Positions 22,525 through 56,726 of a stretch of DNA of 64,000 nucleotides are shown here, in pieces. Position 1 is the stretch's first letter; each line of letters starts with the position of its first letter. A model generated the notes under the pieces. It saw only the letters and a program-made list of their open reading frames with translations, made no database searches and was not told the DNA's origin. This DNA is from Nitrosopumilus sp. GTDB lineage: Archaea > Thermoproteota > Nitrososphaeria > Nitrososphaerales > Nitrosopumilaceae. A program made the translations under genes and the position numbers. The DNA lies in the NCBI GenBank assembly GCA_963667665.2, contig OY763927.2:864001-928000 (forward strand), in the 5' to 3' direction.

Positions 22525-22541
22525 TCCTTTCTTTTTTTATT

Positions 22542-35697: not shown

Positions 35698-35821
35698 GGT
35701 TCTGTAACGTTACCGGTTGGATCTTCTTCGTGTAACACATCGGTTGGTTTTAGTGTAAAATCCCTGGAATATTTTGAGAAACATATTGACACCTTAACAA
35801 ATCCATATTTTTTCAACCATT

Positions 35822-36175
35822 TTACTTACGTGTCCTACGCCTAGAAGCCCCAAATGAGCCAGGTCCAAATCCTAGAAATTCATTAATCTTTCCACCCAAA
35901 GTCTTTGGTTCAAATTTCTTTTTGTAATAATTTCCACTTGAAGTACTCTTATCCAAATTACAATCAATACATGCTGGAACTAGATTCCGAAGGTAATTTG
36001 ATCCTCCTTTTGCACGAGCTTTGCTGTGATCTATATGCCATGCTCCACGATTTCCATATTTACCACGATTTCCATATTTACCATAATTGACAAATGCTAA
36101 TTGTTTTTCACAATAATAACAATGCCTATTATTTTTATCATAGACATAATTGACTTCTTCATCAGTAAACGTCAT
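35822..36175 (-). CDS. HNH endonuclease
   Basis: CYYC...WHIDH...GGSN...NLVPACIDCN; 18-bp in-frame duplication (GKYGNR x2). Confidence 0.85.
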   Translation of the reverse strand: MTFTDEEVNYVYDKNNRHCYYCEKQLAFVNYGKYGNRGKYGNRGAWHIDHSKARAKGGSNYLRNLVPACIDCNLDKSTSSGNYYKKKFEPKTLGGKINEFLGFGPGSFGASRRRTRK

Positions 36176-36191
36176 AATTTATCAACTATAT

Positions 36192-36551
36192 TCAGTATGG
36201 AAAAGTTATTGTGATTTCTTTTCCTTCTGGTGTGACTTCATTACATTCAGGAGTATATTTCTTGTAAAGAGTATGTTCTATGTTTTTTTGATCTTCTTCA
36301 TTATTTACATAGCAATATCTAAAATACAATGCTTTGTCTCCTACTCTGCTTTTAATACATTTGTTCTCTTCATCATTTGATAGATGTTTTAATAATCTAG
36401 TTTCCAAATATTTTGTTCTACCAACATACACTGGTCTGTATCCGCCTTTTTTGAGACCCACACTGATCAGATAGTTTCCACCTATATCGTTAACAACTTT
36501 TTTGACAGTTTCTTCATAATAATCAAAAAGGCCATGCCACTCTAATTCCAT
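36192..36551 (-). CDS. GIY-YIG nuclease
   Basis: GNYLI..YVGRT..L..RL..H..E..CN. Confidence 0.8.
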   Translation of the reverse strand: MELEWHGLFDYYEETVKKVVNDIGGNYLISVGLKKGGYRPVYVGRTKYLETRLLKHLSNDEENKCIKSRVGDKALYFRYCYVNNEEDQKNIEHTLYKKYTPECNEVTPEGKEITITFPY

Positions 36552-36561
36552 ATCATCACCA

Positions 36562-36828
36562 TCAACATTTCCCCTGCAAACGCTTCCGTTTGTAGATTAC
36601 ATCAGCTACTACTCTTCCATATGATCTTGCTTTTGGTTTTACTGTTACTGTTTTCCCCTGAATTTGCCTTGCTAGTTTTTGCTTCGCAGACAAATATCCT
36701 GGTTGTCCTTTTTCAGGACAGTTCAAACCAGTTACGCGAACATATTGAGAGTTATTTACTTTATTTCGTATCTTGAAAGTATCACCATCAATTACTTTCT
36801 GAACTTTTCTACGGTAAACCTTTTTCAT
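36562..36828 (-). CDS. Thermonuclease (SNase)-family protein
   Basis: KVIDGDTF, VRVTGLNCPE, SYGRVVADV. Confidence 0.85.
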   Translation of the reverse strand: MKKVYRRKVQKVIDGDTFKIRNKVNNSQYVRVTGLNCPEKGQPGYLSAKQKLARQIQGKTVTVKPKARSYGRVVADVIYKRKRLQGKC

Positions 36829-36947
36829 TTTTTTCTCCCATATATCATTGGAGTTTCATCAGGTCCATCATCAAATTCTCTGATTATTCGTGGGTACATT
36901 TTATTCATATCATGCCTAGAACTTTACAATAATAATATATGATCAAG

Positions 36948-36972
36948 ATAGTCTTAATAATACTTAGACTAT
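36948..36972. promoter_or_regulatory. Dyad operator ATAGTCT-N11-AGACTAT
   Basis: Ends 1 nt before the regulator ATG (36974), in the divergent intergenic region. Confidence 0.6.
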
Positions 36973-36973
36973 A

Positions 36974-37708
36974 ATGACTAAACTGACAAGACTGCGTATA
37001 CACGTATGTCCAATAGGATATGAGATAGACCGAATTGTTGAATCTGCAAAAAAATTACAAGCTGATCGTGTATGGCTAATCATAGAACAGAATCCTTCAA
37101 AAGAAACAGCTTCTAAATTCATTAAGCAGGTAAGATCCCTTCTGAAAAAGAATGAAATCGATGTAAAACTAAAAGGCGTATCACGTGATGATCTTTTTGA
37201 CAATCTAAAAGGAATAAAAGAAATTTTCGAAGAAGAAAAAGGAAATGAACTTTATGTCAATGTTTCAGCTGGCTCAAAAATTCAAGCAATTGCAGGGATG
37301 ATGGCATGTATGATGTTTAAAGAGTATGAATCTATTCCATATTATGTTAATCCAAAAAAATATGAAAAGCCTTCGACATCACCACAATCATCAGGTGTAA
37401 AAGATATTGTTCCTCTTCCAGATTATACAATACAAAAACCCAACGCCGAATTAGTACAAACTCTCAAAATAATTAAAAATAATAATGAAAAATTAAATAA
37501 AAAGTCTTTAGGAAAAATTGCAATTCGTGAGGGATTAATAGATTCGAAAAATGATAAAGTAACTCAAAGTGATTATGCAAAACTAGACCATCACATTATC
37601 AAGCCGTTAGAAGAAATATGGAAATATATCACTGTAAAAAGAATTGGAACTAATCATTGGATTGAATTGACAGATGCAGGAAAAGATGCATGTAAATTTT
37701 TAATCTGA
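36974..37708 (+). CDS. DUF6293/HFX_2341-type CARF-like + wHTH regulator
   Basis: IHVCPIGYEIDRI, ADRVWLI, YVNVSAGSK, PYYV; C-terminal wHTH (IELTDAG). Confidence 0.8.
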   Translation: MTKLTRLRIHVCPIGYEIDRIVESAKKLQADRVWLIIEQNPSKETASKFIKQVRSLLKKNEIDVKLKGVSRDDLFDNLKGIKEIFEEEKGNELYVNVSAGSKIQAIAGMMACMMFKEYESIPYYVNPKKYEKPSTSPQSSGVKDIVPLPDYTIQKPNAELVQTLKIIKNNNEKLNKKSLGKIAIREGLIDSKNDKVTQSDYAKLDHHIIKPLEEIWKYITVKRIGTNHWIELTDAGKDACKFLI

Positions 37709-37973
37709 TATATGTATATGGTAATTATTCATAAACACCACACAATTTTAACACGAGTATACATATTTTTACAATATATTTTTTGAGCAATTCCTGTTTT
37801 TAGTAACTTAAATTTGAATCTTGATTGATTTGTATTTTTGATAACATAATACCCTTCATTTTTCTAATCTCAAATCATAATAACTATCATTATATCAAAA
37901 ATTCGTCGTAGTGGAATCACTAATGAATTTGATGATACAGATGTGTCTGGAGATGAAATTGTCAAAAAATTAG

Positions 37974-38201
37974 ATGATGCTTTGGAGGATTACAGGTGAA
38001 ATTGTGACAAAACAACACATCAAAGTCATCGTAGAAAACAACTCCTACATTGTTAATGTGACTGAATCTTCAGAAAGTGGATTTGTTGGAAACTGTATAG
38101 AATTACCCGCAGCAATAAGCCAAGGAGAATCAATTTCAGAACTAGAGAAAAATATCAAAGAGGCAATAATGCTAGTTTTACAAGAACATATGGACAAATG
38201 A
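37974..38201 (+). CDS. HicB-like antitoxin (HicA N-terminal remnant DVSGDEIVKKL just upstream)
   Basis: GFVGNCIELPAAISQGESISELEKNIKEAI. Confidence 0.7.
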   Translation: MMLWRITGEIVTKQHIKVIVENNSYIVNVTESSESGFVGNCIELPAAISQGESISELEKNIKEAIMLVLQEHMDK

Positions 38202-38517
38202 TTCACAATCCCTAAATCATTCTGCTGTAAACTAGCAACATGTCACGTCGTTAATGACAAAAACAAGAATTCATGGAGCCAGAGTACCAAGAAACGCAAG
38301 GGTCAAACGACCTGTAAGCTGTGGTTTTGTGAAAAGAAAAAAGAGAGGTTACCAACATGTGATGACTCTTATCCAAAATACCAAAAAGCAAGGTGTCAAC
38401 AGATGCAAAATCTGCAAACATCATTTTCTTTCTTACTTGAAAACAGTTACAAATTTGATTAAAATACAAAATCACTGTTTTTACACAATCTTAATCTCTC
38501 AGTCTATCTCTTAGCCA

Positions 38518-39225
38518 TTGTTGCCAAATCTTTTTGTAGACATTGAAACTGCACCTCAATTCACCAAAGAAGAATACTTTAAAACAAAAGAGGCAATTGA
38601 TTCAGGAATATTACACAAGAATTCTGAGAACAAGGATTTGTTTTGGAGATTTGAGCGAGGGGGCCTTACACCATTTAATGGCAAAACTATCCTCATTACA
38701 TACAAAATCAACAATGGCCATGTCTTTCGACTCAAAGAATGGGAACTAGGAGAAAAAGAACTATTGCAAAAATTCTACAACGTTGTAGTTGATTTGCAGC
38801 GAGGAACAAGTGATGATAGACTAAAAATAATTGGTCACAACATCCTTCGATTTGACTTGTTTTTTCTGTATGGTAGAATGATTCATCACAATATTGAGGA
38901 TGAAAAATGGCTTCATCAATGGCTCATTAACAAACCTGAAGTAATTGATTTTCTTCAAATACATCTACCATTAAATAATTTCAAAACTAAAGGTCTCAAG
39001 CATGATGTTTTGGCATATGCGTATGATTTTCCTGTAAAATCAACTCTTGGTTCTGGTGAAATCCCACATTATTTTCAAGAGGATTATGATAAAATAATAG
39101 AATATTCTGAGCGTGAATTCATTTATCCAGAATTGTATGAGAAAATCATTACTAATGGAATGATTACATCAGAGATGTTACAAAAATCAATTAAACATTA
39201 TGATAATTTACAAAATGAAAATTAA
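38518..39225 (+). CDS. DEDD/RNase H-like 3'-5' exonuclease
   Basis: FVDIET, IGHNILRFDL, IEYSERE. Confidence 0.8.
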   Translation: MLPNLFVDIETAPQFTKEEYFKTKEAIDSGILHKNSENKDLFWRFERGGLTPFNGKTILITYKINNGHVFRLKEWELGEKELLQKFYNVVVDLQRGTSDDRLKIIGHNILRFDLFFLYGRMIHHNIEDEKWLHQWLINKPEVIDFLQIHLPLNNFKTKGLKHDVLAYAYDFPVKSTLGSGEIPHYFQEDYDKIIEYSEREFIYPELYEKIITNGMITSEMLQKSIKHYDNLQNEN

Positions 39226-39372
39226 TTTTAAAATGAACTAAAGATCATCTTTTTTCTCAGAACCCAAATCATTTAACAAATCAGAATATTTCTCAATAAT
39301 TTCATCTGTGATTTTCTCATCTATTATGTTCATAATGAATGACTCTTTTCATAGTATAAGTTGTAATCTATT

Positions 39373-39765
39373 TTAACAAGAATCTAAACTCATATCTCCA
39401 TTCTCATCAGTATTTACAGGTATTCGAATTTCCTTTCCAAAAAAATCCGTTATTGAATACTGTTTTGGAGTCACCATTCTAGCTGCACTTTGAATCAATG
39501 TCTTCCACTTGTCTTCTCCAAGAATGTTAATTCCTGCAATTTCAGCAGGAGTTTTACCTCCTAAACTGGTATGTGGCCTGAAATAGTTGTGATATAATTG
39601 ATATCCTGAAATCACGACTGAATCCTTCTTTTTTACGCCTCGTGTTGTCTTTTCTTTGTCTCGAAATTCACCGTTTAATCTCTCCATCATGTTGTTGTTG
39701 TGGTTTCCATCCATTCTAATGGTGTTAATGTGAATCGGAATATCATTTCCTTTTCCACGCATCAA
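39373..39765 (-). pseudogene. IS6-family transposase C-terminal fragment
   Basis: NNNMMERLNGEFRD, RPHTSLGGKTPAE. Confidence 0.8.
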
Positions 39766-40021
39766 ATTCGATAATTTTCAGATTCTTGTCATTAGTTTTT
39801 TCCAAGTCCTTTTTTACTTTTTTGATTAATGTTGTTTTACCAGATCCCCATTCTCCATGAATTCCTATTGTAAAAGGAGGTTGTAATTTTTTATCAGTGA
39901 GAATGTTGGCAATTTGCTGAGAATACTTGACAAAATTAAATTGTAAATTCTCAATTTCAGGTTCATCTGTGATTAGTTTAAGTTTCTCAAGAATCTGTTG
40001 TTTATGATCACTTTCTGACAT
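39743..40021 (-). pseudogene. KAP-family P-loop NTPase N-terminal fragment
   Basis: PFTIGIHGEWGSGKTT...IIEFDAWK, then truncated. Confidence 0.8.
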
Positions 40022-40206
40022 ACACTTTCGATTTTCTTAATCGTATCTTATAATTTTGTATTGAATATTATCCAGTTACGATGTAACAACACCCTAAAAC
40101 AGGTTCTGTAAAGTTGGTGGTTTACGATTGACTTTAACTAACCTGTCAAAGATCGCCTCATTCACCGTCACGCCTAAAAGTAGGACATTTGAGGAACTGA
40201 TCAGAA

Positions 40207-41163
40207 ATGTACAAACAAGGATTTGCATTAATAGGAACGGCTGCATTTCTGCACATTATTACACAAATATTTCAATTTATTCAAGACCAAACTCTCGACA
40301 TTTTTCGAAATGAGTCCCACGTATTTAGCATCATTATTCCAATTATTATTGGAATAATAGGTATAGTGTTGATTTTCAAAGATAAATTTGGGTGGTTCAA
40401 AAATAAAGATAATAGAAAACAATATGATGCAAAAAAACTCAATGAGACTGTTTTCAGAAAATTAATGCGAGTAGAATGTATAGAAGATGAATTTTTCTTT
40501 ATAGAAAAATTTGGGTTTTGTATACCTACAAATAAAATGGCATTTACAAACAAAAGCGAATCTGATTATTTATTTTGGGCTGTAGGAAGTAGAGATGCCA
40601 GATACATTCACAAAGAATTTGACATTATTGAGAGAATTATCCCAAATTTAGAAACAGGAGAACAATATTTGAAGATAGAATATTATGAAATTTATAAACA
40701 ATGGATTCAAATTAAAAAAGATTTGGAAGAATTAAATCTAAAAAGAAAATCTTTCTTTAATTCAATATCCAAACAAATTGGTAAGAAATTAAAAAAACAT
40801 TTCAACTGTGAATCTAAATTACTTTTACATCCATTTGGAGATGAATGTGTATTTTTTGAAGAAAATACAGAAAAGATTTTGCCGTATCAATTCAATACAC
40901 ATTATCTTGAATTAGATAATCCTTGTGAAAATCAATACTATGTAACATATAGGAGAAATAGGATTCTGGGCAGTAATAAAAACACAGCAGATTTGGATGT
41001 AGTTAAAGATGTATTCACTACTATTACAAATGATAGAAGAATAATAGACAAAAAAATTAACTTTGATATGGATAAAATAAACTTAAACAAAAGAATCTCA
41101 GATTTTTGTGATCAATTGGAACATAAGGTTGTACATGATATTGACGCTCAAATTACTTCCTAA
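40207..41163 (+). CDS. Hypothetical protein with two N-terminal TM helices
   Basis: 318 aa ORF downstream of an internal IS6-like end GGTTCTGTAAAGTT (40102). Confidence 0.65.
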   Translation: MYKQGFALIGTAAFLHIITQIFQFIQDQTLDIFRNESHVFSIIIPIIIGIIGIVLIFKDKFGWFKNKDNRKQYDAKKLNETVFRKLMRVECIEDEFFFIEKFGFCIPTNKMAFTNKSESDYLFWAVGSRDARYIHKEFDIIERIIPNLETGEQYLKIEYYEIYKQWIQIKKDLEELNLKRKSFFNSISKQIGKKLKKHFNCESKLLLHPFGDECVFFEENTEKILPYQFNTHYLELDNPCENQYYVTYRRNRILGSNKNTADLDVVKDVFTTITNDRRIIDKKINFDMDKINLNKRISDFCDQLEHKVVHDIDAQITS

Positions 41164-41484
41164 GATATTCACTCATAATAACACGAATAGTCTCAGATAC
41201 AGTCCAACAATTCTTCATTACATTCTTTTTCTAATGTTTTTACCATATCAACAGAGGAAAGAAACAAAACTGTACTCGAGGAAGTAGACCATTCCAAGTT
41301 CAAATCTGTTGAGATTTGCACAAAAATCAACCGAAATGAGACAAGGAGAAGATATCAACCGAGCATGTTACAGAACCTCCTAACTGACCACTTCATCACC
41401 CGAATTGACCACTAGTTGAAAATCCGCCTAGTTTGGAACAGTGTATAAAATTATACACTGTTCAATCTTAGTGTCATTTCATGA

Positions 41485-42355
41485 TTTTCAATTGAGTGTT
41501 CAATTAGGTGGATGGGTGTTAAGTAGGGTGATAAATGATTATGGGAGTGGTTCGTGTCCTCTTTTGTATCCTGAGAATTTTCTATATTCGTAATCAGTTA
41601 AAGGAGTTTGACATCCACATTTACAAAATGTTTTCATGTTTTCAATTTACACTGCACATACAAAAAGATTAGGAATTCATCTTTAGCCAGCAACTGTCTT
41701 TTCCATTTGACAACCATGCAAATTTATGAAGTTTCAAAATATCATTAATCTCCCTCCAGATGTGTTTATCAATCCAATCCTTGGGAGTTATTTTGATAGA
41801 GTCACCCTTATTAACTATTGATACTTTTTTGATTCTCTTTCCAAGATTGTTTACAAAATTTGGTTTGCTTCCAGCTTGTTTTATCAAATCTAGATATTTG
41901 TCATCACCAAGATTCAAGTTAATGTTTGCAGCTTGTGCAGGAGTCTTACCATTTAGCCCTTGATGTGGTTTTACAAAGTTATGGTTGATTTTCAACAACT
42001 CTGAAAATGTCTGTGCTGATTCATCATTTCCCAATCCACGTCTAGCTTTGAGTTTTTCTCTTATCTCATTATGGTATCTCTCAATAGGCCTATTCACAAA
42101 GCCATCTTTGAGTGATTTTGTTTTGATATGTGCAGTTTTATTTTCAAACTCTTTTCTAATTGCTTCTTGGTAAGAGTTGAGACAATCAGTTAATACATAA
42201 TTTGGATTCTGTGATACTATCTTTTTGCCACTTGTGATAATCTTTCTTGCATCTGAAATTTTCCTTTTCTGTTGATTTGGGATATTTTTTTTGACAAAAC
42301 TTGAAGACAGAGTCAAATCTAACATTATTTCTGAAATTAGAATCACTACATTTTA
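41485..42355. repeat. 871-bp direct repeat, copy 2, containing IS6 fragment 41669-42346
   Basis: Identical translated ORF to 35011-35688. Confidence 0.95.
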
Positions 42356-42499
42356 CAAAGTAAAACAACGAAGAAATTCTTTGTAGTTCATCATCAGATG
42401 GATTTTCAGGATGAGTGACAATATCATCAATCTCTTTTGCCATCTGTTCTAATGGGTTATCCAAGAATTTGATTTTATCATGGAATTTTTATCTTTAAC

Positions 42500-43445
42500 G
42501 CTCCGCTCGGCCCCTTTGGGGGGCCTCGCTACGCTTTGATTTTCTCTTAGAAAATCTATCAGGATTTCCTTTCAGGAAATCATATGGAAAAATTAATAAT
42601 TTTTCTAAAGGGGCCTTGATGTTCCGTACGAACGTGCGTACCGTTACAGCGCGGCGTTCCGTACGGTTCCGTTACGACGTTCGTGCCGTCAGACGTTACG
42701 TTTTACGATTATGTTACGACATGTGATTCTTTGAATCACTAATGATCCATAAGACCATAAAATAGGGCGAATTCTACGAATCTTTGATTCGTTATAACGG
42801 TCTTTCAGACCGTAGTAATAGGGCGAAAATTACAATTAAAAATTTTCAAATCTAGATTATTGAATATTGTAATTTGGGATATCAAGATGAACGGAGGACT
42901 GACAAATTTCTCTCGAAATTAAAAAGACGGTTTTAACCAATTTGATGATTTGAATACAATGTGTTCTTTGTATAGATATCAACAAATCATCATCGATCAA
43001 CAAGAGAGATTTGAGTTGTTTTTTGTACACTCTGGATAAGGACCATTTCAGGACACAGGTTAAAGTAATTTAGAATTTCTCAAAAGAGAATGAGTTCTGT
43101 TTTCTATGGTGATGGATACACTTACTCTCATGAGACAGTCAAAAAGTCAGAACTAATTCCAGAGAAGATATGTCCTCAATGTGGAAATGATGTAGATAAC
43201 AACTTTGAGATTCTTTCAGGAACAATGGAATTACTCATGAAGGATGAATTAGAGATGTTGATACTCAAAAAAGGTACAAAACACAATAGTACGATGTACC
43301 AGATGTGATATCCAGTTTATTCGACAGGAAACCAGGATTACAAGATATAATGTGAAATTCTATGAGTAAACACATAGATTCTGAAAAATAAAGACCGAAG
43401 GTCAAAGCGTAGCGAGGTTTGAGCGAAGCGAAAACCGAGCGGAGC
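42500..43445. other. Putative plasmid/ICE origin (oriV/oriT-like) region
   Basis: Inverted GC-rich ends (GCTCCGCTCGG..CCTCGCTACGCTTTGA / TCAAAGCGTAGCGAGG..CCGAGCGGAGC), GTTCCGTACG/CGTTAC repeats, AATAGGGCGAAA x2. Confidence 0.45.
43090..43308 (+). CDS. Small protein with CxxC
   Basis: CPQCG; 72 aa. Confidence 0.4.
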   Translation: MSSVFYGDGYTYSHETVKKSELIPEKICPQCGNDVDNNFEILSGTMELLMKDELEMLILKKGTKHNSTMYQM

Positions 43446-43711
43446 CTTAGAAAATAATTAATCATTCTTCAAACATAGTATTCTTCACCAATACCAATAA
43501 TCAGTATTCTTCACTAGTATTCTGAGTCATCATTCCATCTAGTCAATTCTAGAATTTTTATTTTTACTGTATATTTTGTTACCCTTTTTACTGAGGCCTT
43601 TTCTTTTTTTTCTTTTTTTGTTCGCCGATTCGCTGTTAGGGTATATTGCGAATAAAGTGTTTTCGTGCCTAGATTGAAATTATTCGCCAAAAGTTAGTTT
43701 TAGGAGTAAAT

Positions 43712-43764
43712 TGGGATCAATGGGATCAATGGGATCAATGGGATCAATGGGATCAATGGGATCA
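43712..43764. repeat. Tandem repeat (TGGGATCAA) x6
   Basis: Direct reading; last unit lacks the final A. Confidence 0.95.
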
Positions 43765-43802
43765 TTTTGTGTCTGTTAAATAGAAAATGACAATCTAAAA
43801 TT

Positions 43803-44042
43803 GTGAAAAATAAATATTATAGAAAATGTGGTAGCCGAAGTAAAAATAGAAAACGTTGGATTATTGAACTTCCAATAAAATGGGTTAAAGAATTACAATT
43901 AGAAGAAGCAATGATGGAATTAGTTCTAAAAGGTAACACAATAACAATACGAAAAGTTGTAGAATCAAAATCAACAGATGAAAAGATACCCGAGAACAGT
44001 GTTGGAACCGCAGGTGATGGTCCGACTATTACAAGATATTAA
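43803..44042 (+). CDS. AbrB/MazE-like DNA-binding protein
   Basis: WIIELPIKWVKELQL...MELVLKGNTITIRK. Confidence 0.65.
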   Translation: MKNKYYRKCGSRSKNRKRWIIELPIKWVKELQLEEAMMELVLKGNTITIRKVVESKSTDEKIPENSVGTAGDGPTITRY

Positions 44043-44044
44043 TT

Positions 44045-47307: not shown

Positions 47308-47522
47308 GGTTCTGTAACATCACCGGTTGGATCTTCTTCGTGTAACACATCGGTTGGTTTTTGTGCAAATCTACCAAAGTTTGGTCATTAAATCTCCCAT
47401 CGGGTTTTGTCAGATCAGCAATACTCCCCACTTTTGTTTATAACTCTAATCTTAATTTTCAAAAAATCATAAATTTTTTGTTGACTGTTAATATTATATT
47501 CTATCAAATCGTATAGTATTAC

Positions 47523-47777: not shown

Positions 47778-47851
47778 TCTGCGTTCTTATTCATTTCAAA
47801 CTGAGTTAATTGACCACAGTATTTTTTGCATATGCATAATCTGTCAGTCTG

Positions 47852-48127: not shown

Positions 48128-48211
48128 TCCTAATTGAATTAAAATGGTTTTAGTTTAACTAAACAATATCTGATTTAGTGAAAATAAATACTACTGATCT
48201 ATTCTAACTTT

Positions 48212-48766
48212 GTGCAGGGATTAGATGTTTTTGATACTTTAGGCTTAACCTTAGCGTCTAATGATAATAAAATTGTAGGACGCACAACCATTCAAAAACT
48301 AATTTATTTTGAAACTATTAAAATTCCAGAAATTAAATTAAATCAGCCTTATTTTGCCTATTTTTATGGTCCATTTAACAAAAATGTGGCAAAATCTCTT
48401 GAACAAATGGTAATTCTTGATATTTTCGAAGAACATAGAACATATGACAACCATGGAAGTTATGTCTATAAAGTATCAGCCAAGGGTAATCCTCTGATCA
48501 ATAAACTTGTAAAGAAATCTGGAAAAATATTTGATAAAATTGAAAATATTGTTCATACATGTAATGAATACTGTAAATTAGATCCTAACCCACTATCTTT
48601 TGCAGCCAAAGTTCATTTCATGATGAGTTCTCCAAAATCTAAAAAAACCATGACGAATAACGAATTAATGAAGTTAGGAAAATCATTAGGCTGGAAATTA
48701 TCCAGATCTGATATAAAGGGTGGATCTGAATTGTTAAATCAGCTTAACCTTGTTAAAATCCAGTGA
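48212..48766 (+). CDS. YwgA/Panacea(DUF4065)-like protein
   Basis: GRTTIQKLIYF...YGPFNKNV. Confidence 0.7.
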   Translation: MQGLDVFDTLGLTLASNDNKIVGRTTIQKLIYFETIKIPEIKLNQPYFAYFYGPFNKNVAKSLEQMVILDIFEEHRTYDNHGSYVYKVSAKGNPLINKLVKKSGKIFDKIENIVHTCNEYCKLDPNPLSFAAKVHFMMSSPKSKKTMTNNELMKLGKSLGWKLSRSDIKGGSELLNQLNLVKIQ

Positions 48767-50066
48767 TAAACAATATTTCTCTTACAAATCTATTAGAGAT
48801 CCATTATATGGCTTCATTAATTTATCCAAAAAAGAAACAGAAATTATTGACACGTATGCATTTAGAAGATTACAAAACATCAAACAGCTCTCACATGCAT
48901 ATGTAGTATATCCATCAGCAGTACATACTAGATTTGAACATTCGTTAGGTGCTTTACATGTTGCCGATAGAATGTGTCAACAGTTAGGACTAGAAAGAAA
49001 AAAAAGAGAACTTGTCAGACTATCCATTCTTTTACATGATATTGGTCATGGTCCATTTTCTCATTTATTTGAACAGGTTTTAAAAAAAATCAATAAGGAA
49101 CAATTTGAACATGAAGATATTTCTACCTGGATTATTAACGAAAATTCTGAAATATCTTCAATTGTCAAAAATTATAAAAAATCAATAATTGAAATTCTTA
49201 AAAAAGACGACAGAGTTCCAAAATGGGAGTCTTCTGGCAACTCTCTTTTATCAGATATTGTTTCTAGTGGTCTTGATGCAGATAAACTAGATTACTTGAG
49301 ACGAGATTCTTATCATATTGGTGTTGCTTATGGACAATTTGATTTAGAAAGAGTTATTCAAACAATTAGATCAAATCAAAATAAAACTCGTCTCTGCATT
49401 GATGGTAAGGGTAAAGATTCTGTAGAAAATTACCGATTGGGTAGATATCTAATGCATGCCCAAGTATACGAACACCATACCAGAATTGTAGCAGATTCAA
49501 TGTTTTTGAAAGCCTTAGATTTAGCAATTACAAAGGAAAAAATTCTTGATAAAAAATTACTTACTATATCAAAAAATTCTTCTCATAAACGGTTTCTAAA
49601 ATACTATTTAGAATTAGATGATAGAAACATCTATGATACTATTCTTAAAAAACCACGTTCCGAAGCTGCAAAACTTCTAACTGCCATAAAACAACGTAAA
49701 TTATTGAAAAGAGCTTGTGATTATCCTATAACCTCTATGGTTAATGCAGATGTAGCCGAAAAAATTATAAAAATGAATACAAACGAATTAGAAAAAGAGA
49801 TAGCCAAAAAAACAAAAATTAACATCAATCAAATCATTGTATATTTCTCAGAAATTAACATAAAGTTATACGACAAACGTGACATACTAGTTCTTTGGAG
49901 AGGACAGCTAAAAGATTTCAATGATCTTTCCCCAATTTCAGCTCAATCATCAGTTCAAAGACTTTTGGTTTTTGGACCTAGAGATGATAACAAACGGAAA
50001 AAAATCACACAAGAAGTAGCAAACTATCTTAATATTCCAATGAAAGAAATTCGTCCAATGAGTTAG
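48750..50066 (+). CDS. HD-superfamily dNTP triphosphohydrolase (SAMHD1/YwfO-like)
   Basis: RDPLYG, RRLQNIKQL, HTRFEHSLG, LHDIGHGPFSH, DADKLDYLRRD, VYEH. Confidence 0.9.
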   Translation: MLKSSDKQYFSYKSIRDPLYGFINLSKKETEIIDTYAFRRLQNIKQLSHAYVVYPSAVHTRFEHSLGALHVADRMCQQLGLERKKRELVRLSILLHDIGHGPFSHLFEQVLKKINKEQFEHEDISTWIINENSEISSIVKNYKKSIIEILKKDDRVPKWESSGNSLLSDIVSSGLDADKLDYLRRDSYHIGVAYGQFDLERVIQTIRSNQNKTRLCIDGKGKDSVENYRLGRYLMHAQVYEHHTRIVADSMFLKALDLAITKEKILDKKLLTISKNSSHKRFLKYYLELDDRNIYDTILKKPRSEAAKLLTAIKQRKLLKRACDYPITSMVNADVAEKIIKMNTNELEKEIAKKTKININQIIVYFSEINIKLYDKRDILVLWRGQLKDFNDLSPISAQSSVQRLLVFGPRDDNKRKKITQEVANYLNIPMKEIRPMS

Positions 50067-50102
50067 AAAACACAAAAATAATTATGAATTTAACTAAAAA
50101 TT

Positions 50103-50510
50103 ATGAATTTTAAATCTGAAATTAACCGAGACGAATTAATTCAAAAAGCTAGGGAAGCAAAAGAATTTGCTTATTGTCCTCACTCCGACTTTAAGGTTGG
50201 TGCTGCACTACTCTTAGAAAATGGAAAAATCATACTAGGTTGTAATGTGGAGAATATTTCTTATGGTGCAACAAACTGTGCTGAAAGAACAGCAATCTTC
50301 AAAGCAATATCTAATGGAGAACAATCATTTCAAGCAATAGCTATCTCGTCTTCTAGTTCTCCTGATAAACCAATTTACCCATGCGGAATTTGTAGACAAG
50401 TCATGGCTGAATTTAATCCTGAAATGATTGTCTATGTTGACGGAGATGAAACTTCTTACAAATTATCAGAGTTATTACCAAAATCATTTGACGAAAATCA
50501 AATGAAATAG
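50103..50510 (+). CDS. cdd: Cytidine deaminase (homotetrameric type)
   Basis: VGAAL, GCNVEN, CAERTA, PCGICRQ. Confidence 0.9.
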   Translation: MNFKSEINRDELIQKAREAKEFAYCPHSDFKVGAALLLENGKIILGCNVENISYGATNCAERTAIFKAISNGEQSFQAIAISSSSSPDKPIYPCGICRQVMAEFNPEMIVYVDGDETSYKLSELLPKSFDENQMK

Positions 50511-50595
50511 AATAATCTCTGTTAGACAGAAATTCAATATTTCATCTACATGAATAGAGATCAACTGATAAAATTATTCATAATAACTAACATTA

Positions 50596-50985
50596 TTAGA
50601 TCCTTTTTGAGCGTGGAAGTACAAATCCTGATTTCGTAGGAATGTCTTCGGGAACTGCCTCGTGATAACCATGCAATAATTGATACATAACCTTGTTGAA
50701 CAATGATATTTCAAATTTACTCTCTGAAAAATTATCATAAAACTCAAAAGAATCATCATCATTATAAAAAAACTCTACAACTGATTCATACCAATTCTCT
50801 CTGGGATTTTGATCGTAGATAATCATCTTCCTTAATTGTTCTAAATCTTGTTTTGCACATTCAAGAAATCCATAAATGCCTCGAAGATGTACTTCTGTTT
50901 CTCTAGCAAAACTTTCTGCTCTTTTAATATTATTTTCCAGTTGTTTTAATCGATATGTTAATGCACCAGCTTCTCTTTGATCCAT
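50596..50985 (-). CDS. Hypothetical coiled-coil protein, virus/MGE-like
   Basis: Last gene of a tightly packed operon headed by the Cas4-like gene. Confidence 0.6.
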   Translation of the reverse strand: MDQREAGALTYRLKQLENNIKRAESFARETEVHLRGIYGFLECAKQDLEQLRKMIIYDQNPRENWYESVVEFFYNDDDSFEFYDNFSESKFEISLFNKVMYQLLHGYHEAVPEDIPTKSGFVLPRSKRI

Positions 50986-50997
50986 TTTTTATGCCCT

Positions 50998-51228
50998 CTA
51001 AAGTTCCACTGTATCTAAAATTTTATGACCAAATTCTTTTGCATTTTCAATTGTTAATTGTGAATCTCCATCTACATAAATTGCAGAAACAATTCCAAGT
51101 AAGACTATAATTCCAAATAAAGTAAGAATAATACTCATTTCTTTCCTCCTTGTGCTCTTTCTAGTTTTCTTGAAAAACTTGTTACTCTTTCGTTCCAATA
51201 TGGGAACATATTTTCTGCATGTTTCCAT
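50998..51228 (-). CDS. Small membrane protein (start probably at MSIIL, ~51138)
   Basis: Single TM helix; ATGA-type overlap with the upstream ORF. Confidence 0.45.
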   Translation of the reverse strand: METCRKYVPILERKSNKFFKKTRKSTRRKEMSIILTLFGIIVLLGIVSAIYVDGDSQLTIENAKEFGHKILDTVEL

Positions 51229-51374
51229 CTACCATATTCTCGATTAGAGAGATTTTCTCGAATCTTTGAACCATATACATCAACTACTCTTTTGTAGTAA
51301 GCAGTCATTGCAATTGCCTTATTCAGATTTGGTAAGACATAGAATTGAATAATCAGCCACGAAAATAGGCTCAT
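51135..51374 (-). CDS. Hypothetical protein
   Basis: Translationally coupled in the operon. Confidence 0.5.
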   Translation of the reverse strand: MSLFSWLIIQFYVLPNLNKAIAMTAYYKRVVDVYGSKIRENLSNREYGRWKHAENMFPYWNERVTSFSRKLERAQGGKK

Positions 51375-51610
51375 TTCATCTCCTCCAATGTTTTATCAGA
51401 GAATTTCATTTGATTTTTTGAGAGAGTTTCTTTCCTGTCATCTTTGACTTCCTCTTCATTAATTTCCTTGAATTCTAGTAACAATTTCATTCGAAATTGC
51501 TTCTCTAGCATTTGCATGCATGGAACTGTAAATTCTTGCATTTGCATGCATAGAGGACAAAAATAATAATCCTCAGTATCTATAGTCATTTCTTGTTTTA
51601 CCTTATTCAT
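51371..51610 (-). CDS. Hypothetical protein with CxxC
   Basis: CPLC; coupled to the Cas4-like gene. Confidence 0.5.
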   Translation of the reverse strand: MNKVKQEMTIDTEDYYFCPLCMQMQEFTVPCMQMLEKQFRMKLLLEFKEINEEEVKDDRKETLSKNQMKFSDKTLEEMK

Positions 51611-52367
51611 TTTCTTTTTCCTCCTTTGATTTTGGGATAGACAATGGTTTATCAGTTAATCCATTTCCATCCTCAAAGCATCTTGTCTGGTATTTACAAA
51701 ACTTGCAGAGTCCAGATGTTTCTCCATTTGGAATTTTGTCATGTGTCTTACCATCTTCAATTTCCTGAATTCTAGTCTTTATCCAGTCTGTTAGATCTCT
51801 TTTTTCTACTTTGTATGTTACAATATCAGACATGTCTGCATAGACAATGTTTAGATTCTCTACTGGTACGTATTCTGAAAACATTGTATCATAGCATTGT
51901 AGTTGCAAGATATGTTCGAGTTTTGGCAAGAATCCTTGCTTTATTTGCCATCTAACAAACTTTGTAGTTTTTAGATCAATGATTGTCTTTGTTTTCCAAT
52001 CATACATGTCTAGTCTTCCTGCTAGTGTTGCTACTTTTCCATTCTTTAATGGAACATGATACTCAATATCCATCTCACGCCATTTGTAAGCATATGTCAT
52101 GTTGTGAAGAAAATCACCACGAACAGTAGCCCACATTGATTCAAGTGTTGTATCTGCTAGAAGTTCTTCTTGAGATATTCCTAGTTGTTTGTATAGAGAT
52201 TTTCTTTGACATCCAACTAGTTCAGTCACAGAATATCTAGACTTCCAGTTTTTGGTAAATACACCGTTTCGTTTTTGTAAAAAATTAATGATTCCTTCTG
52301 GTGCATCTATTTCTTTTGCTAAAGCGATTTGGCCGCTACCCATTTGTTTTGAAATCTTTTGTTTCAT
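51603..52367 (-). CDS. Solo Cas4-like PD-(D/E)XK exonuclease
   Basis: C..RK, RG..LH, GRLD, IDLK, QLQCY, CKFCKY..RC (four Fe-S Cys). Confidence 0.85.
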   Translation of the reverse strand: MKQKISKQMGSGQIALAKEIDAPEGIINFLQKRNGVFTKNWKSRYSVTELVGCQRKSLYKQLGISQEELLADTTLESMWATVRGDFLHNMTYAYKWREMDIEYHVPLKNGKVATLAGRLDMYDWKTKTIIDLKTTKFVRWQIKQGFLPKLEHILQLQCYDTMFSEYVPVENLNIVYADMSDIVTYKVEKRDLTDWIKTRIQEIEDGKTHDKIPNGETSGLCKFCKYQTRCFEDGNGLTDKPLSIPKSKEEKENE

Positions 52368-52400
52368 ACATTATATAATGAATGATGTTTAGTAGGTTTA

Positions 52401-52432
52401 AATTTGGATTATACAAATAATATTTGTACTAA
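52401..52432. promoter_or_regulatory. 32-bp operator/BRE box, copy 1
   Basis: AATTTGGATTATACAAATAATATTTGTACTAA; 29/32 match to copy 2; 33 nt from the Cas4-like ATG. Confidence 0.8.
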
Positions 52433-52447
52433 ATAGTATTTTTACAC

Positions 52448-53194
52448 CTAGATCGTTCCAATTCTAACTTGAGTATCAATCCACACTTGTAAAATCTCAA
52501 TAAACTCATAAACTGAAAAAATTACTAAATTCGCCAAAGTGATATAATTTCCTGGATGATCAATTCCCGATATTGGTTCTGAGATCTTTCTTTTTGCAAG
52601 ATCAAACTTAGCACTGAAAAAAGGTTCTTCTTTATGTGTTTGAAAATTTCTCATGTTATTTAGAACGTCTATAACTCCTCCATAATATTCATATAATTCA
52701 TTTTTTGCTTTTCTCCAATCCATACTTTGTTTATTGTCTTTTCTGCTTCTTGTTGTATATGGATTATTTTGTACATTTTGATAACGAATTTTAATATTTT
52801 CCCGATTAAATTTTTCTAAGAGATTATGCAAAGAATCATCTGGTTCCAATGCATGTTCACAAGAATTTTTCAAATAACCTTTGAATAATTTTAAAAACAT
52901 ATCTTTTAGTGCATGAGGAATATTTCTCAATAATTCATTTTCAATCCGCTGTAATTCATCGAAATCTTTAGGTATTGGAAAGTCTGTAGGAAAAATACTT
53001 GGAATAATACCTTGAGATAAATCATCATATGCCTTTTTAATATTTTCACTCACGTCTGGTGTAATTTCTTCAGTTGTTTTCATTAACTCAATAATTTTAT
53101 CATTTAATGATTCCCAGATCAAAGTTTGTGTGTCTTTTACTCTAACTCTTAAAATCAGATAACGATCAAAATTTGAAATTTCTTTGTTTGTCAA
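52448..53194 (-). CDS. HEPN-like protein
   Basis: Helical; NMRNFQTH (RxxxxH); start abuts the stop of the RM gene. Confidence 0.65.
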   Translation of the reverse strand: MTNKEISNFDRYLILRVRVKDTQTLIWESLNDKIIELMKTTEEITPDVSENIKKAYDDLSQGIIPSIFPTDFPIPKDFDELQRIENELLRNIPHALKDMFLKLFKGYLKNSCEHALEPDDSLHNLLEKFNRENIKIRYQNVQNNPYTTRSRKDNKQSMDWRKAKNELYEYYGGVIDVLNNMRNFQTHKEEPFFSAKFDLAKRKISEPISGIDHPGNYITLANLVIFSVYEFIEILQVWIDTQVRIGTI

Positions 53195-55384
53195 TTATTC
53201 CTCATAATCAAATTTGAAAAGATTTTGTTTTTCAGCTTTTAGTTGTTTTTCAAGTTTTTCTATGTTGTTTAATTTATTATCTAATGCTACTAACTTTTTC
53301 TTTTGTTGATTAAGTGGAGTTTTAGGAATGATCAAAGAATTGAGATTGTCCATATTTATTCTAGAAATAAAATTTGCTTTGCTTTTTATTTTTAATTGTT
53401 CCTGCACACTTTCTGAATTGAGCACATATGCTAGAAATTTAGGAATGATTTTTTTTGGATCTGCTCTAATTACAGCTATTTGTGGACTGGGTAAAATTCC
53501 TACGTCTTTTTTACGTGTAATTCCTATTTTTCCAACTGTTCCCTGGCATGATAATAAAATATCATTTTCTTTGATTAAAAAATCAGAGTACTGTTTAGGA
53601 TATTGTATATAGATAGTTTTTGAAACCACATCCTTTATGAAACCATTTTCTATGTCTTGTATTCTAAGATATGGAGTGGGTGTCTTCTTACTATCTAGTT
53701 CAGAATCAACTGGAGATGGTTTCCCAAACCAAATTTTTCCTAATTTTTCTAATTCAATACCGTTTAGATTTTCGATAATCTTTTGTAATTCTGGTGTTTT
53801 GTCTGATACTGTCCATGTTTTAATCAAATCATTTTGATGTACATGAAAACTTTCAGAAGATGCTTTGAATGATTTTCCTTGTTCAAATTTTTGGAAATCA
53901 TTTTTAATTTTTCTTAAAACATTTGTCCTTAATTTTTTATCTTGAAATACATCTGTAGAAATATCCGACAAGAATACTCTGTTCCAATTTTCCTTACCTT
54001 CTTTTCTTTTGAAATTTAGAATTATCAAACTCATAGATATTCCTGTTTGAGGTAAAGCAATTCCTTGAGGAAATTGAATTATGGCTCTTAGATATCCTGG
54101 ATGTGCTAAAGAAAGACGAAGTGATTCTAAATTTTTCATTGCAAGAAAACTTGGAGGTACTAATAATGCAACTTTGGATAGGTTTTTTTGATTTTGTAAT
54201 TTTTTGATAATATATGCTAATTGTGTTCTTCCATAATTCCCATAAATTTTTCTTATTTCATCTCTTGATGAAATATCTGCACCAATTGGAGGAAAACAAA
54301 AAATGTACTCAAAATCGTTCATTTCCTTAGAATTTAAAAACAAATAATCTTTATTGACTAATTTTATTTCTTTTTCGTATAATTTAGAAATGACTTCTAA
54401 AATTTCACATACATCAGTATTTACTTCAACGCCTGCCAGATTTTTGGTTACATAATCATTTAATTGACTTTTAGTAAGTTTGTATTTTTTTTCAAATATC
54501 TCTGGTAAATCAAAAAGTGGACCATATCTTGCATATGGAATAAGTATTTTTTTATTTTTTAATGGATCAATTAAATCAAATATGAGATTGGATAGTTCTT
54601 TTGGATAATCAATCCAATCGTCTCTTAACAATAATTTTAACATTATTTTCCTAATTGCTTCTTTGTCTGATTTTAATAACGAATATTCTTTCACTGTATC
54701 AAACAATTCATAAAATTTTATTCTAGATAGTTTTTCTTCTGTAACTCTATGTGTACCAAACAAATTTGGAAATGTTCTCTTTCCTAATTCAAACAATTCA
54801 TTTATTTTTTCTTCTTTTGATTTGTTTGTGTCTTCTTCGAATAATTTTCCTTTGAATTCTGTTTCATCTAAAATTTTTAATGTAACAATTTGTAAAAATG
54901 GAGTATATTGATAAAAATCTCTTCTAACTATATCTGCAAGTATTTTTATTTGATAATTAGTTGCAGCAAGGGGTTTGAATTCATTTAATATTTTTTGAAT
55001 TTTATCAAAAAATTCCTTTTTTGGAATATCTTTGATTGGTAAAAGACTATTTCCCTTTAACTGAAATGTCTTTTTTTCTTTTCCATTATATAATATTCCA
55101 TATTCTGCTTTTGATTCTTTTAGATATTCTGAAAGTTGATGTTCAAAAAGTGGTAAAACCAAATTTCCTGTTTTTACTTCTACAATAATTCTTGGTTTTT
55201 TCTTTTCATCAAATACAACGACATTTGCTCTTTTTCCAGAATCTTCTCCAAGAAAGACTTCTCTTCCAATCTGTTTTGGAGGGAATCCATAGTCCTTCTT
55301 CAAAATCTTGATAATTTTTTCAACAAGTTCCACCTCCTTGATCATATCATATTCTTCATTATCGTTGTTTTTATTCATGTTCAT
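53195..55384 (-). CDS. HsdR_N nuclease-like + N6-MTase-like + TRD fusion (type I/IIG-like) with degenerate catalytic motifs
   Basis: RANVVV..VEVK; motif I IPYARYG; motif IV FPPIG; TRD ENDILLSCQGTVGK..IPKFLAYVLNS..PLNQQ. Confidence 0.8.
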   Translation of the reverse strand: MNMNKNNDNEEYDMIKEVELVEKIIKILKKDYGFPPKQIGREVFLGEDSGKRANVVVFDEKKKPRIIVEVKTGNLVLPLFEHQLSEYLKESKAEYGILYNGKEKKTFQLKGNSLLPIKDIPKKEFFDKIQKILNEFKPLAATNYQIKILADIVRRDFYQYTPFLQIVTLKILDETEFKGKLFEEDTNKSKEEKINELFELGKRTFPNLFGTHRVTEEKLSRIKFYELFDTVKEYSLLKSDKEAIRKIMLKLLLRDDWIDYPKELSNLIFDLIDPLKNKKILIPYARYGPLFDLPEIFEKKYKLTKSQLNDYVTKNLAGVEVNTDVCEILEVISKLYEKEIKLVNKDYLFLNSKEMNDFEYIFCFPPIGADISSRDEIRKIYGNYGRTQLAYIIKKLQNQKNLSKVALLVPPSFLAMKNLESLRLSLAHPGYLRAIIQFPQGIALPQTGISMSLIILNFKRKEGKENWNRVFLSDISTDVFQDKKLRTNVLRKIKNDFQKFEQGKSFKASSESFHVHQNDLIKTWTVSDKTPELQKIIENLNGIELEKLGKIWFGKPSPVDSELDSKKTPTPYLRIQDIENGFIKDVVSKTIYIQYPKQYSDFLIKENDILLSCQGTVGKIGITRKKDVGILPSPQIAVIRADPKKIIPKFLAYVLNSESVQEQLKIKSKANFISRINMDNLNSLIIPKTPLNQQKKKLVALDNKLNNIEKLEKQLKAEKQNLFKFDYEE

Positions 55385-55417
55385 AATATGAAAAGAATCT
55401 AAAAAGCAATAATCTTA

Positions 55418-55449
55418 AATTTGGATAATACAAATATTTTTTGTACTAA
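55418..55449. promoter_or_regulatory. 32-bp operator/BRE box, copy 2
   Basis: AATTTGGATAATACAAATATTTTTTGTACTAA; overlaps the regulator ATG; 33 nt from the RM-gene ATG. Confidence 0.85.
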
Positions 55450-56348
55450 TGGCAATATTCATAGCACCGATAGGAACTCACACTGAACATGTAAAGGGAT
55501 GGCTCAAAGAAGAATCTAGAGATGTAGATACTCTATGGCTGATTCATAGTAAAAAAAACATAAAGTTTGATTTTCCAAAGATTGCAAAAAAATTAGAAAA
55601 AGATCTAAATGCAGCATATCCACAAATCACAATAAAGAAAAAAATAATTGAAAGTGCATTTTCTGAAGACCCCACAATTGATGCTATACTTGAAATTATT
55701 CGCAAAGAGGAAGATGATGATTCCTCTATTATTCGAAAAGACTTTGTTGTAAATATCACAGGTGGTACTAACATTATTGCAGCAGCCACAATTCTTGCAG
55801 CAACATTTTATGGAACAAGAGCTCATTATGTTAAAGAACCACAAAAAGGTGATCCAAGGGGAACAAAATATGTTTACGAATTACCAATTCAACCAATAGG
55901 AATTGCTAGATTAAATCAAAATCAGTTAGATGTTTTAAAAATTATTGCAGACTCTACTTATGAAATAAATGATGTACCTAAAGGACTAGATAATAAAAAA
56001 ACACCTGGTTCTATTACACGATTTAAGTTACTCCAAAAACTTGGATGGGCAAAACCAGTAAAAGGATCAAAATTTCCAAGAAGAGAAGGAGGAACCAGAT
56101 TACTTGGAATCACAAAGAAATTAAGAGATGCTGGTTTAGTTGAACAAATAGATTTTATTGAATTTTATAAGGATCAAAATGAATCTAAAAAATCAAAAAT
56201 AGTATATCAGGATGGTTATGCAAAAAAAGTTGAAAATAAAAAATATGTTTCTGACTGGAAAATTTTAAGAAATGAAAGAGAAGTAAGATATGAGATAACT
56301 GCTGCAGGCAAACGTAAAGCAAGAGATGCCCTTATGTTTGATATTTAG
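55449..56348 (+). CDS. CARF-like (DUF6293/Csa3-type) + wHTH regulator
   Basis: IFIAPIG, LWLIHS, VNITGGT, AHYV; wHTH KLRDAGLVE..YEITAAG. Confidence 0.8.
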   Translation: MAIFIAPIGTHTEHVKGWLKEESRDVDTLWLIHSKKNIKFDFPKIAKKLEKDLNAAYPQITIKKKIIESAFSEDPTIDAILEIIRKEEDDDSSIIRKDFVVNITGGTNIIAAATILAATFYGTRAHYVKEPQKGDPRGTKYVYELPIQPIGIARLNQNQLDVLKIIADSTYEINDVPKGLDNKKTPGSITRFKLLQKLGWAKPVKGSKFPRREGGTRLLGITKKLRDAGLVEQIDFIEFYKDQNESKKSKIVYQDGYAKKVENKKYVSDWKILRNEREVRYEITAAGKRKARDALMFDI

Positions 56349-56376
56349 TACAAAAAATATTTGTATTATCCAAATT
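56345..56376. promoter_or_regulatory. 32-bp operator/BRE box, copy 3 (perfect inverse of copy 2)
   Basis: TTAGTACAAAAAATATTTGTATTATCCAAATT overlapping the regulator stop; 33 nt before ATG 56410. Confidence 0.85.
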
Positions 56377-56726
56377 CAAAGATAACTTGTAGTTTCTCTA
56401 ACTATTTTCATGACACAAAAATGCCCTCAAAAGAAACGATGCGTGCAAGAGATATTTTGAGATGGTTTGTGGTGTTTGTTATTGGCTACTAAAAGAATGC
56501 AAATCCCAAAAAATTGCAATTCCTGGGGGCTACAAATTATCTAAATTAATTCAAAATGAAGGATTTGTGATAAAATACCCAAAACCAACCGATCTGTTAC
56601 ACGGAAAAGATCCCACCGGTGATGTTACACTATGACAATTTTTCATTTAACCGTTTTGAACTGGATCCACTTTTGGGAATAGATCGCAGAGAATCAGGTG
56701 TGAAATTGAGGCTAGTTTATGGTCTT

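Follow-up and report, generated by a model that had tools for sequence, protein, structure and literature searches.

Insertion sequences (IS) of the IS6 family are described as elements of ~800 bp that have repeats of 15-20 bp, tips with GG and a cTGTt motif and that make 8-bp repeats, with a zinc finger noted in one long clade and a passenger gene in one listed member (PMC7986276). A survey of the thaumarchaeal mobilome reported 244 IS from 13 families, as elements of one or two genes (PMC6563490). In the literature searched, which included the 2026 archaeal IS survey PMC13343696, supplements aside, neither two-site ends nor multi-gene cargo is described for IS6-like elements of Nitrosopumilus. 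Here we analyze a stretch of 64,000 nucleotides from Nitrosopumilus sp. (contig OY763927.2, positions 864,001 to 928,000; hereafter the window, in genome G000), in which four copies of a long bipartite end repeat, A to D, bound two gene-filled units, A-B and C-D. We consider it likely that A-D bound, as terminal inverted repeats, two transposase-less elements of a passenger-carrying Nitrosopumilus clade of IS6-like DDE transposons. This clade inserts with 8-bp target duplications, has both filled and empty sites and includes autonomous copies; the current mobility of A-B and C-D is unproven.

End repeats and insertion boundaries

The ends, the units between them and a fifth genomic copy are:

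35698..35759 (+): end A, type 1; tip GG (GGTTC), direct sites TGTAAC-N5-CGGTTGG and TGTAAC-N4-CGGTTGG with starts 28 bp apart
41312..41377 (-): end B, type 2; tip GG, inner site TGTCTC-ATTT-CGGTTGA
47308..47369 (+): end C, type 1; tip GG
56576..56634 (-): end D, type 1; tip CATAG in place of GGTTC, before TGTAAC
35698..41377: unit A-B, 5,680 bp, bounded by ends A (+) and B (-)
47308..56634: unit C-D, 9,327 bp, bounded by ends C (+) and D (-)
G000:C1:268341: end E, the fifth genomic copy, outside the window; type 2, inner site TGTCTC..CGGTTGA

Self-BLAST of 33000-64000 aligned A (35698-35759) with C (47308-47369) at 94% identity over 62 nt (E 2e-20), the minus strand of D (56581-56629) with C at 92% over 49 nt (E 3e-13) and the minus strand of B (41312-41377) with C at 82% over 66 nt (E 1e-10). 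Together with a repeat search, these alignments place the four copies where the initial annotation had put them, except that D reaches out to 56634 rather than 56629, and they bear out its units of 5.7 and 9.3 kb. The 11-mer tip GGTTCTGTAAC occurs three times in the window, against 0.00 expected in 100 shuffles, and a half-site regular expression has 14 matches across the 1.88-Mb chromosome, of which ends A-E account for 10. An alignment of 15 ends, 49-66 bp long and bipartite, has 22 invariant columns, out to position 54. In each end, of 55-62 bp, a 5-nt tip precedes the outer site TGTAAC-N5-CGGTKG; the conserved spacer (G)ATCTTCTYC separates this site from its inner copy, after which comes TTTT. 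The caaa motif of IS6 is absent from the aligned ends. The tip is GGYTY in 11 of the 15 (giving a GGYTYTGT start) and CATNN in the other four, and in both complete cases a CAT tip stands opposite a GG tip. Two statements of the annotation about all four ends therefore stand in part: the IS6-like GGTTC start is found in A, and B and C have GG tips, whereas D begins with CATAG; and two internal TGTAAC sites are present in A, C and D, whereas B, like the genomic copy E, has TGTCTC..CGGTTGA as its inner site. The nearest kin of B are E, L005, the right end of L006 and G014, while D shares ~100-180 bp of subterminal homology with the left end of L006 and the right end of L012.

Two of the four two-ended members of this end subfamily lie within 8-bp duplications, which are absent in A-B and C-D:

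L006 404-10055: element of 9,652 bp, one end of type 1 with a CAT tip, the other of type 2 with a GG tip; 8-bp duplication AATCACAG on both sides
L012 1706-2996: element of 1,291 bp; 8-bp duplication CTAATTGT on both sides

Further, the spacer between CofC and TFB that L006 fills is empty in G000 (C1:952230-952304), and at that position L005, the chromosome of a Nitrosopumilus metagenome-assembled genome, carries a type 2 end. Among transposase-bearing two-ended relatives, 8-bp duplications were found in five of nine (C1:403718-406290, L057, L061, L048 and L126) and not in C1:474894-477934, L056, L060 and L121, which brings the count over all two-ended elements to 7/13. L057 and L061 are different transposase-bearing elements with unlike repeats, yet in their two genomes they seemingly occupy one and the same target, ATATTTAAAAA K AGAA, and both have the duplication TTAAAAAK, which hints at a target preference.

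In the window itself, the tip of A can be read against a repeat that adjoins it:

34827..35697 (-): copy 1 of an 871-bp repeat, adjoining the tip of A exactly; contains a 225-aa IS6-like transposase open reading frame (ORF)
41485..42355 (-): copy 2, 99.7% identical to copy 1; continues unbroken into 42356-42489

A third copy (G000:C1:583774-584008) likewise continues for 134 bp past the breakpoint. Since copies 2 and 3 run on where copy 1 stops, 35697/35698 is a true breakpoint at the tip of A; by the same continuation of copy 2 into 42356-42489, the right border of the repeat is not an IS end. The 225-aa ORF is without the N-terminal half and the first catalytic D and matches positions 102-202 only of the IS6 model, and no inverted repeats were found within 1.5 kb of the 871-bp repeat or of five transposase paralogues. 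We rejected an IS26-type pseudo-compound transposon made of repeat, A-B and repeat, because the transposase of the repeat is incomplete and the two copies are therefore not two intact IS.

The duplications around L006 and L012, the site filled in L006 and empty in G000 and the breakpoint at A indicate that the ends coincide with insertion boundaries. Coincidence of end copies with breakpoints had been set beforehand as the observation on which the initial annotation turned, and it came out in its favor through the CofC-TFB site and the exact break at A against two paralogous copies.

Transposase lineage and standing of the two units

The genome that holds the window encodes an intact transposase elsewhere, and A-B keeps a piece of the same lineage:

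G000:C1:274564-275790: intact transposase, 409 aa
39373..39765 (-): transposase remnant in A-B, 130 aa, C-terminal

The 409-aa protein combines a SWIM-like motif (CxC..CxH) at its N terminus with a zinc ribbon (CxxC..CxxC) and a full IS6-type core; it retains the WRADE, TDG and NNNxMERLNGE motifs, of which the 225-aa ORF beside A is without WRADE. It matches positions 1-201 of 202 of the NCBIfam IS6 model NF033587 at 114 bits (cut-off 125). For all four full-length proteins tested this model is the best NCBIfam match, over the same positions and at 101.8-123.4 bits. Pfam DDE_Tnp_IS240 scores 43.8-69.8 bits (cut-off 27) for the full-length proteins scanned. The A-B remnant is 85% identical to the intact protein and includes the C-terminal tail that is peculiar to this lineage (aa 378-409, 32 residues). 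That tail matches only the E locus, A-B, L006 559-654, G365 and, weakly, G414, and all of these places adjoin the ends described here; in G013, a 56-aa remnant covering the tail lies 3.8 kb from an end. At the E locus (L010, G000:C1:271900-275800) we also observed three partial 3' copies of the 409-aa gene, each with the same downstream tail of ~80-95 bp, and a fourth tail piece. The ~95-bp tail behind the intact gene (GGTGAATC..) was ruled out as an end, having no inverted copy.

Homologues of the 409-aa protein occur in 42 of 101 genus genomes, none of them more than 49% identical over full length. Around them lie two-ended elements of 2.5-3.8 kb with two-site repeats of 33-62 bp, in which the transposase is central and is accompanied by 2-5 passenger ORFs, a nucleotide cyclase and a Fic protein among them. 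Two transposase-bearing relatives are:

L126 (in G181): 2,454 bp, intact 374-aa DDE_Tnp_IS240 ORF; 8-bp duplication AGATCTCA
C1:403718-406290 (in G000): 2.57-kb element, an example of those in this genome that share the tip of these ends; ~40-bp repeats, 8-bp duplication GTCAAAAA, DDE_Tnp_IS240 protein

The ends of L126 read GGTTCTGTTTC-N5-CGGTTG .. TGTTAC-N4-CGGTTG, which is the same two-site design, and L121 and L127 resemble it. Because L126 joins both in one autonomous element, the two-site CGGTTG end is tied to this transposase family. The IS6-like character that had been proposed for the ends is thus upheld by tip and architecture, by 8-bp duplications in relatives, by the autonomous L126 and by the lineage-specific transposase remnants. 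As a separate observation, the element at C1:403718-406290 contains a 491-aa ORF (L007 2273-3748, G000:C1:403775-405247) in which an N6 DNA methylase domain is joined to DDE_Tnp_IS240; this could be a fusion or a frame artefact. We also considered and rejected a Tn7-like transposon: no TnsA, TnsB or TnsC was found among the ORFs scanned (window 35-64 kb, L005 and L006), and the duplications are 8 bp long. The target duplication of Tn7 is 5 bp.

An earlier pattern, used on a collection of genome contigs, fits type 2 ends only and retrieved L005 and L006; that first scan therefore under-sampled the end family. A pattern for both types found the ends in three metagenome contigs and in 5/401 family genomes including G000, that is, in 4/98 other Nitrosopumilus genomes and in 0/302 genomes of other genera, with no match for the reversed control. 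Viral contigs of the collection gave 0 matches, and end C as a DNA query in 60 relatives found nothing outside G000. A model built from the sequences of the 15 aligned ends has matches in 28 of 130 genus genomes at E<=0.01, and L126 was reached through it. By these searches, the end clade appears so far to be restricted to Nitrosopumilus. In G377 (L039 19767-19895), two ends lie on the same strand 64 bp apart, the first CAT-tipped and the second, which follows directly, GG-tipped; an element seems to have inserted here at the border of a previous one. Four of five type 2 ends, B being the exception, have a gene for a DUF7695 protein of ~92 aa one gene inward, whose product may be an element-borne accessory factor:

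L006 7907-8263: DUF7695 gene
L010 6512-6790: DUF7695 gene
L037 1067-1348: DUF7695 gene
L042 287-586: DUF7695 gene

Several observations weigh against reading A-D as the ends of transposase-less transposons of this clade. As the initial annotation had noted, a target duplication is missing from both units: A-B lies between ACATTTTA / TCCTAACT and C-D between ATCGACTG / ACAATTTT, and swapped or reverse-complemented pairings of the flanks of A, B, C and D gave no 8-bp match by eye. D and three further ends (4/15) have a CAT tip, against GG in IS6. Most ends in other genomes are solo, with no partner within 15-40 kb (G414, G377, G013 and G294); specifically, a partner end was found neither in G414 and G377 within 40 kb, nor in G013 and G294, nor near the tail remnant of G414. 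No complete element with these exact ends and an intact transposase was found, and the E locus combines one end and the intact 409-aa gene with no second end found. All four full-length transposases fall just below the NF033587 cut-off of 125 bits. Harmer and Hall see archaeal 'IS6' as only distant relatives, whose longer repeats often begin with bases other than GG, and would remove them from the family (PMC6807381). Finally, neither transposition nor binding nor a circular or joined form was observed.

Part of this evidence would also fit a different history, in which the ends are genuinely IS6-like and A-B and C-D are chance pairings of solo or decayed ends, brought together by rearrangement within a dump of mobile DNA and no longer substrates of any enzyme. 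The two missing duplications, the non-GG tip of D and the abundance of solo ends elsewhere are all in keeping with it, and so are the foreign solo tip at 40102 and the broken KAP NTPase gene inside A-B, the duplicated 871-bp segment on either side of that unit and the inclusion of the whole region in one 47.6-kb island. However, L006 has the same pairing of ends (type 1 CAT with type 2 GG) within a perfect 8-bp duplication, so such combinations can transpose; identities of 94% for A/C and 92% for C/D mean that the ends are little decayed; and an intact transposase of the matching lineage resides in the same genome. We therefore regard such chance pairing as unlikely and favor the view that A-D are the inverted repeats of two members of the IS6-like clade.

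For these members, the transposase would bind the two sites of each end via its N-terminal DNA-binding modules, pair the ends and cut at their tips, and joining to the target would proceed by an 8-bp staggered attack. A copy-in/cointegrate route is probable by analogy with IS26 as described in PMC7986276. Movement of A-B and C-D would depend on action in trans by the 409-aa enzyme or a relative, and missing duplications, solo ends and tandem ends could be the usual debris of replicative events and of recombination between copies.

Cargo, adjoining recombinase and surrounding island

The following features lie within the units:

36974-37708: CARF-wHTH gene of A-B
40102..40120 (+): solo tip nested in A-B, from another subfamily, GGTTCTGTAAAGTTGGTGG; its first 19 nt resemble the inverted repeat of L061
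55449-56348: CARF-wHTH gene of C-D
52397-52435, 55415-55449 and 56342-56380: 35-39-bp repeat with a palindromic core (..GTACAAA..TTTGTA..), 90-97% identity

The nuclease-type cargo of A-B consists of HNH, GIY-YIG, SNase-like and PolB-exo-like exonuclease ORFs (Pfam), next to ORFs of 75 and 86 aa, a fragment of a KAP NTPase gene, which is broken, and a 318-aa membrane/coiled-coil ORF. C-D holds small ORFs, a DarG-like ORF of 184 aa, a Cas4-like nuclease (PD-(D/E)XK), a 248-aa ORF and a 729-aa protein combining HSDR_N with a type I S-domain. At 48750-50510 it also encodes an HD/HD_assoc_2 protein (PADLOC dGTPase, E 1e-13) followed directly by a cytidine/dCMP deaminase, a pair that may resemble nucleotide-depletion defence. 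The CARF genes of the two units match PADLOC CARF3 (E 1e-69 and 5e-22) and Pfam HFX_2341_N/Csa3_N/CARF_Card1, and the nuclease-type domains over both units comprise HNH, GIY-YIG, SNase-like, PolB-exo-like, HD and Cas4-like PD-(D/E)XK (Pfam). There is no intact transposase inside A-B or C-D. The claim that each unit holds a CARF gene and nucleases and lacks such a transposase was thus confirmed by PADLOC and Pfam, with the addition of the 130-aa remnant in A-B.

Of the three copies of the 35-39-bp repeat, two are direct and one is inverted; one copy is found upstream of the Cas4-like gene, another within the divergent promoter that serves the C-D CARF-wHTH gene and the third just past that gene. 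This repeat is a candidate operator for the C-D CARF-wHTH regulator. The two-site motif of the ends might itself be construed as an operator array for the regulators of both units rather than a transposon end, given that a directly repeated site of 17-18 bp is a typical operator arrangement and that both units encode a CARF-wHTH protein. We find this scarcely credible: Pfam finds no CARF gene in L012 and L126, which have such ends, the ends stand at insertion boundaries with target duplications, and the palindromic repeat flanking the C-D CARF gene is the better candidate.

Just outside D is a gene that the initial annotation had named, beside an IS6-like transposase, as a possible mobilizer:

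56727..58412 (-): tyrosine recombinase, 561 aa, 93 bp from the tip of D
58413-58421 (+) and 58449-58457 (-): GTTGGTTTT / AAAACCAAC inverted pair in the recombinase promoter region
47271..47307 (-): tRNA-like 3' fragment (T arm and 3' strand of the acceptor) that lacks a 5' half, adjoining the tip of C; not a gene

The inverted pair is present upstream of the recombinase as had been noted, and the 9-mer GTTGGTTTT occurs six times in the window against 1.33 expected, three of the six in ends A, C and D. This motif in the promoter region, the short distance from the integrase gene to D and the tRNA-like fragment beside C could suggest that the ends are att or inversion sites, at which the recombinase moves or flips the units. 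Its distribution speaks otherwise, and the proposal of the recombinase as mobilizer found no support: the integrase family occurs in 28/101 genus genomes, the ends in 5/401 family genomes, and of the four integrase copies in G000 only that of the window is near an end. The inverted pair is absent upstream of 11/11 other integrase homologues, and Pfam found no integrase gene among the scanned ORFs of L005 and L006 (those of L012 were scanned in part). Relatives, moreover, have inverted ends with 8-bp duplications and no direct att repeats. We accordingly rejected a tyrosine-recombinase integrative element, whose att repeats would be direct and with which the integrase would be co-distributed, and consider a role of A-D as recombinase sites very improbable.

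The tRNA-like fragment may be an att remnant carried in by foreign DNA. Its 29-mer was found in 0/100 other genus genomes at <=2 mismatches and has no match elsewhere in G000; ARAGORN found no tRNA genes in the window. Rfam gave no match at E<=1 in 33-64 kb, with weak matches of 47230-47400 to tRNA-like domains only. Ideas of a CRISPR repeat and a split tRNA were dropped after the ARAGORN, Pfam and Rfam scans.

Both units are part of a larger variable region:

10891..58459: variable island, 47.6 kb, holding both units
11212-12342 (-): 376-aa transposase at the left edge of the island

The closest relatives by ProRS-EgtB DNA are G294 (93%), G073 (86%) and G035 (86%), and in all three, window positions 10516-10890 are joined to 58458/58460 onwards with 11-26 nt between. 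Since 3/3 of these relatives join its two flanks, 10891-58459 is a single island; as the whole of it is missing from them, empty sites of A-B or C-D cannot be read from these relatives. The left edge of the island is exactly another IS6-like tip (GGTTCTGTGAAG..) and the right edge is the integrase promoter with its inverted pair. An integrase-like ORF at 9169-10317 lies directly left of the conserved 375-bp piece, at a locus upstream of ProRS, and with this second integrase-like ORF adjoining it, the island locus looks like an integration hot spot. The island also holds a restriction-modification pair (N6_N4 methyltransferase and Mrr-like gene), a HerA/TraG-like ATPase and several transposon remnants. 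Between the 871-bp repeat and the HerA/TraG-like gene is a tandem 9-bp repeat, TGGGATCAA, in ~7 copies (43703-43773). Another stretch, 25392-33803, has a GC content of 0.50-0.58 against ~0.31 elsewhere and contains cadherin-like and DUF285 repeat ORFs with a 300-bp periodicity; parts of this array recur elsewhere in the genome.

Contigs from other runs that hold the region amount to 20 rows from nine studies, none of them RNA. One (X13) bridges the junction of the tRNA-like fragment and C. No excised or circular form was seen in these contigs, which break at the ends. A join of 42355 to 47308 was rejected as a deletion, being the junction of repeat and A placed on C. A join of 47418 to 58464 in X8, with only 28 nt on one side, is a hint. 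In X12, a loose end before 47307 (two records, agreement 0.67) has a different flank that does not occur in G000 at <=3 mismatches, a weak hint of another site.

Comparison with known systems

We regard these elements as a real family of IS6-like cargo transposons, of which the window holds two transposase-less members whose current activity is uncertain. They show that an IS6-like clade is able to carry multi-gene, defence-like cargo: IS6-type chemistry, as judged by transposase type and 8-bp duplications, here goes with long two-site ends and with 1-10 kb of cargo, among it CARF regulators, nucleases, a deaminase and a dGTPase-like HD protein, as well as HEPN, cyclase and Fic proteins. If active, the elements would offer a concrete, testable means by which defence genes move in abundant marine ammonia-oxidizing archaea, and a simple setting in which to study the effects of added zinc-finger domains and repeated end sites on IS6-type transposition. 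It is possible, if somewhat doubtful, that this Nitrosopumilus branch has become a shuttle dedicated to defence and toxin genes, whose two-site ends would let one trans-acting SWIM/zinc-ribbon transposase move cassettes of up to ~10 kb that have lost the gene for it and would draw further insertions, building defence islands as IS26 builds resistance islands. The tandem ends of G377, the IS fragment abutting A and the IS6-like tip at the island edge suggest such an attraction of insertions to ends.

Of known systems, the IS6/IS26 family (IS26, IS257) as described is closest, sharing the DDE_Tnp_IS240 core, the 8-bp duplication and a GG tip followed by CTGT, as well as frequently missing duplications and frequent arrays (PMC7986276). 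The Nitrosopumilus elements differ from it in size and content (1.3-9.7 kb with at least two passenger ORFs, against ~800 bp and a single ORF), in their ends (49-66 bp with two sites, no caaa and CAT tips in 4/15, against repeats of 15-20 bp) and in the ~135 extra N-terminal residues of the transposase, with its SWIM-like motif and zinc ribbon. The long clostridial IS6 clade ('clade h' or clades VII-VIII) likewise has an N-terminal zinc-binding extension and a repeat consensus longer than that of IS26 (PMC7986276, PMC6807381), but by its description it is bacterial, 1.2-1.5 kb long and without described cargo or two-site ends. ISDsp3, the sole IS6 member listed with a passenger, is also of IS6 type with a gene unrelated to transposition (PMC7986276); it is described with one hypothetical gene and as a single copy, whereas the Nitrosopumilus elements carry 2-12 genes, many of them defence-like, and have transposase-less derivatives. 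Miniature inverted-repeat transposable elements and other non-autonomous DDE derivatives resemble A-B and C-D in keeping both ends and losing the transposase, with duplications in L006 and L012, but the Nitrosopumilus units are much larger and filled with genes, and a master copy with identical ends was not found. Finally, like these ends, those of Tn7-like elements are described with several transposase-binding sites per end that start with TGT, and their cargo is likewise rich in defence genes (PMC8649781).

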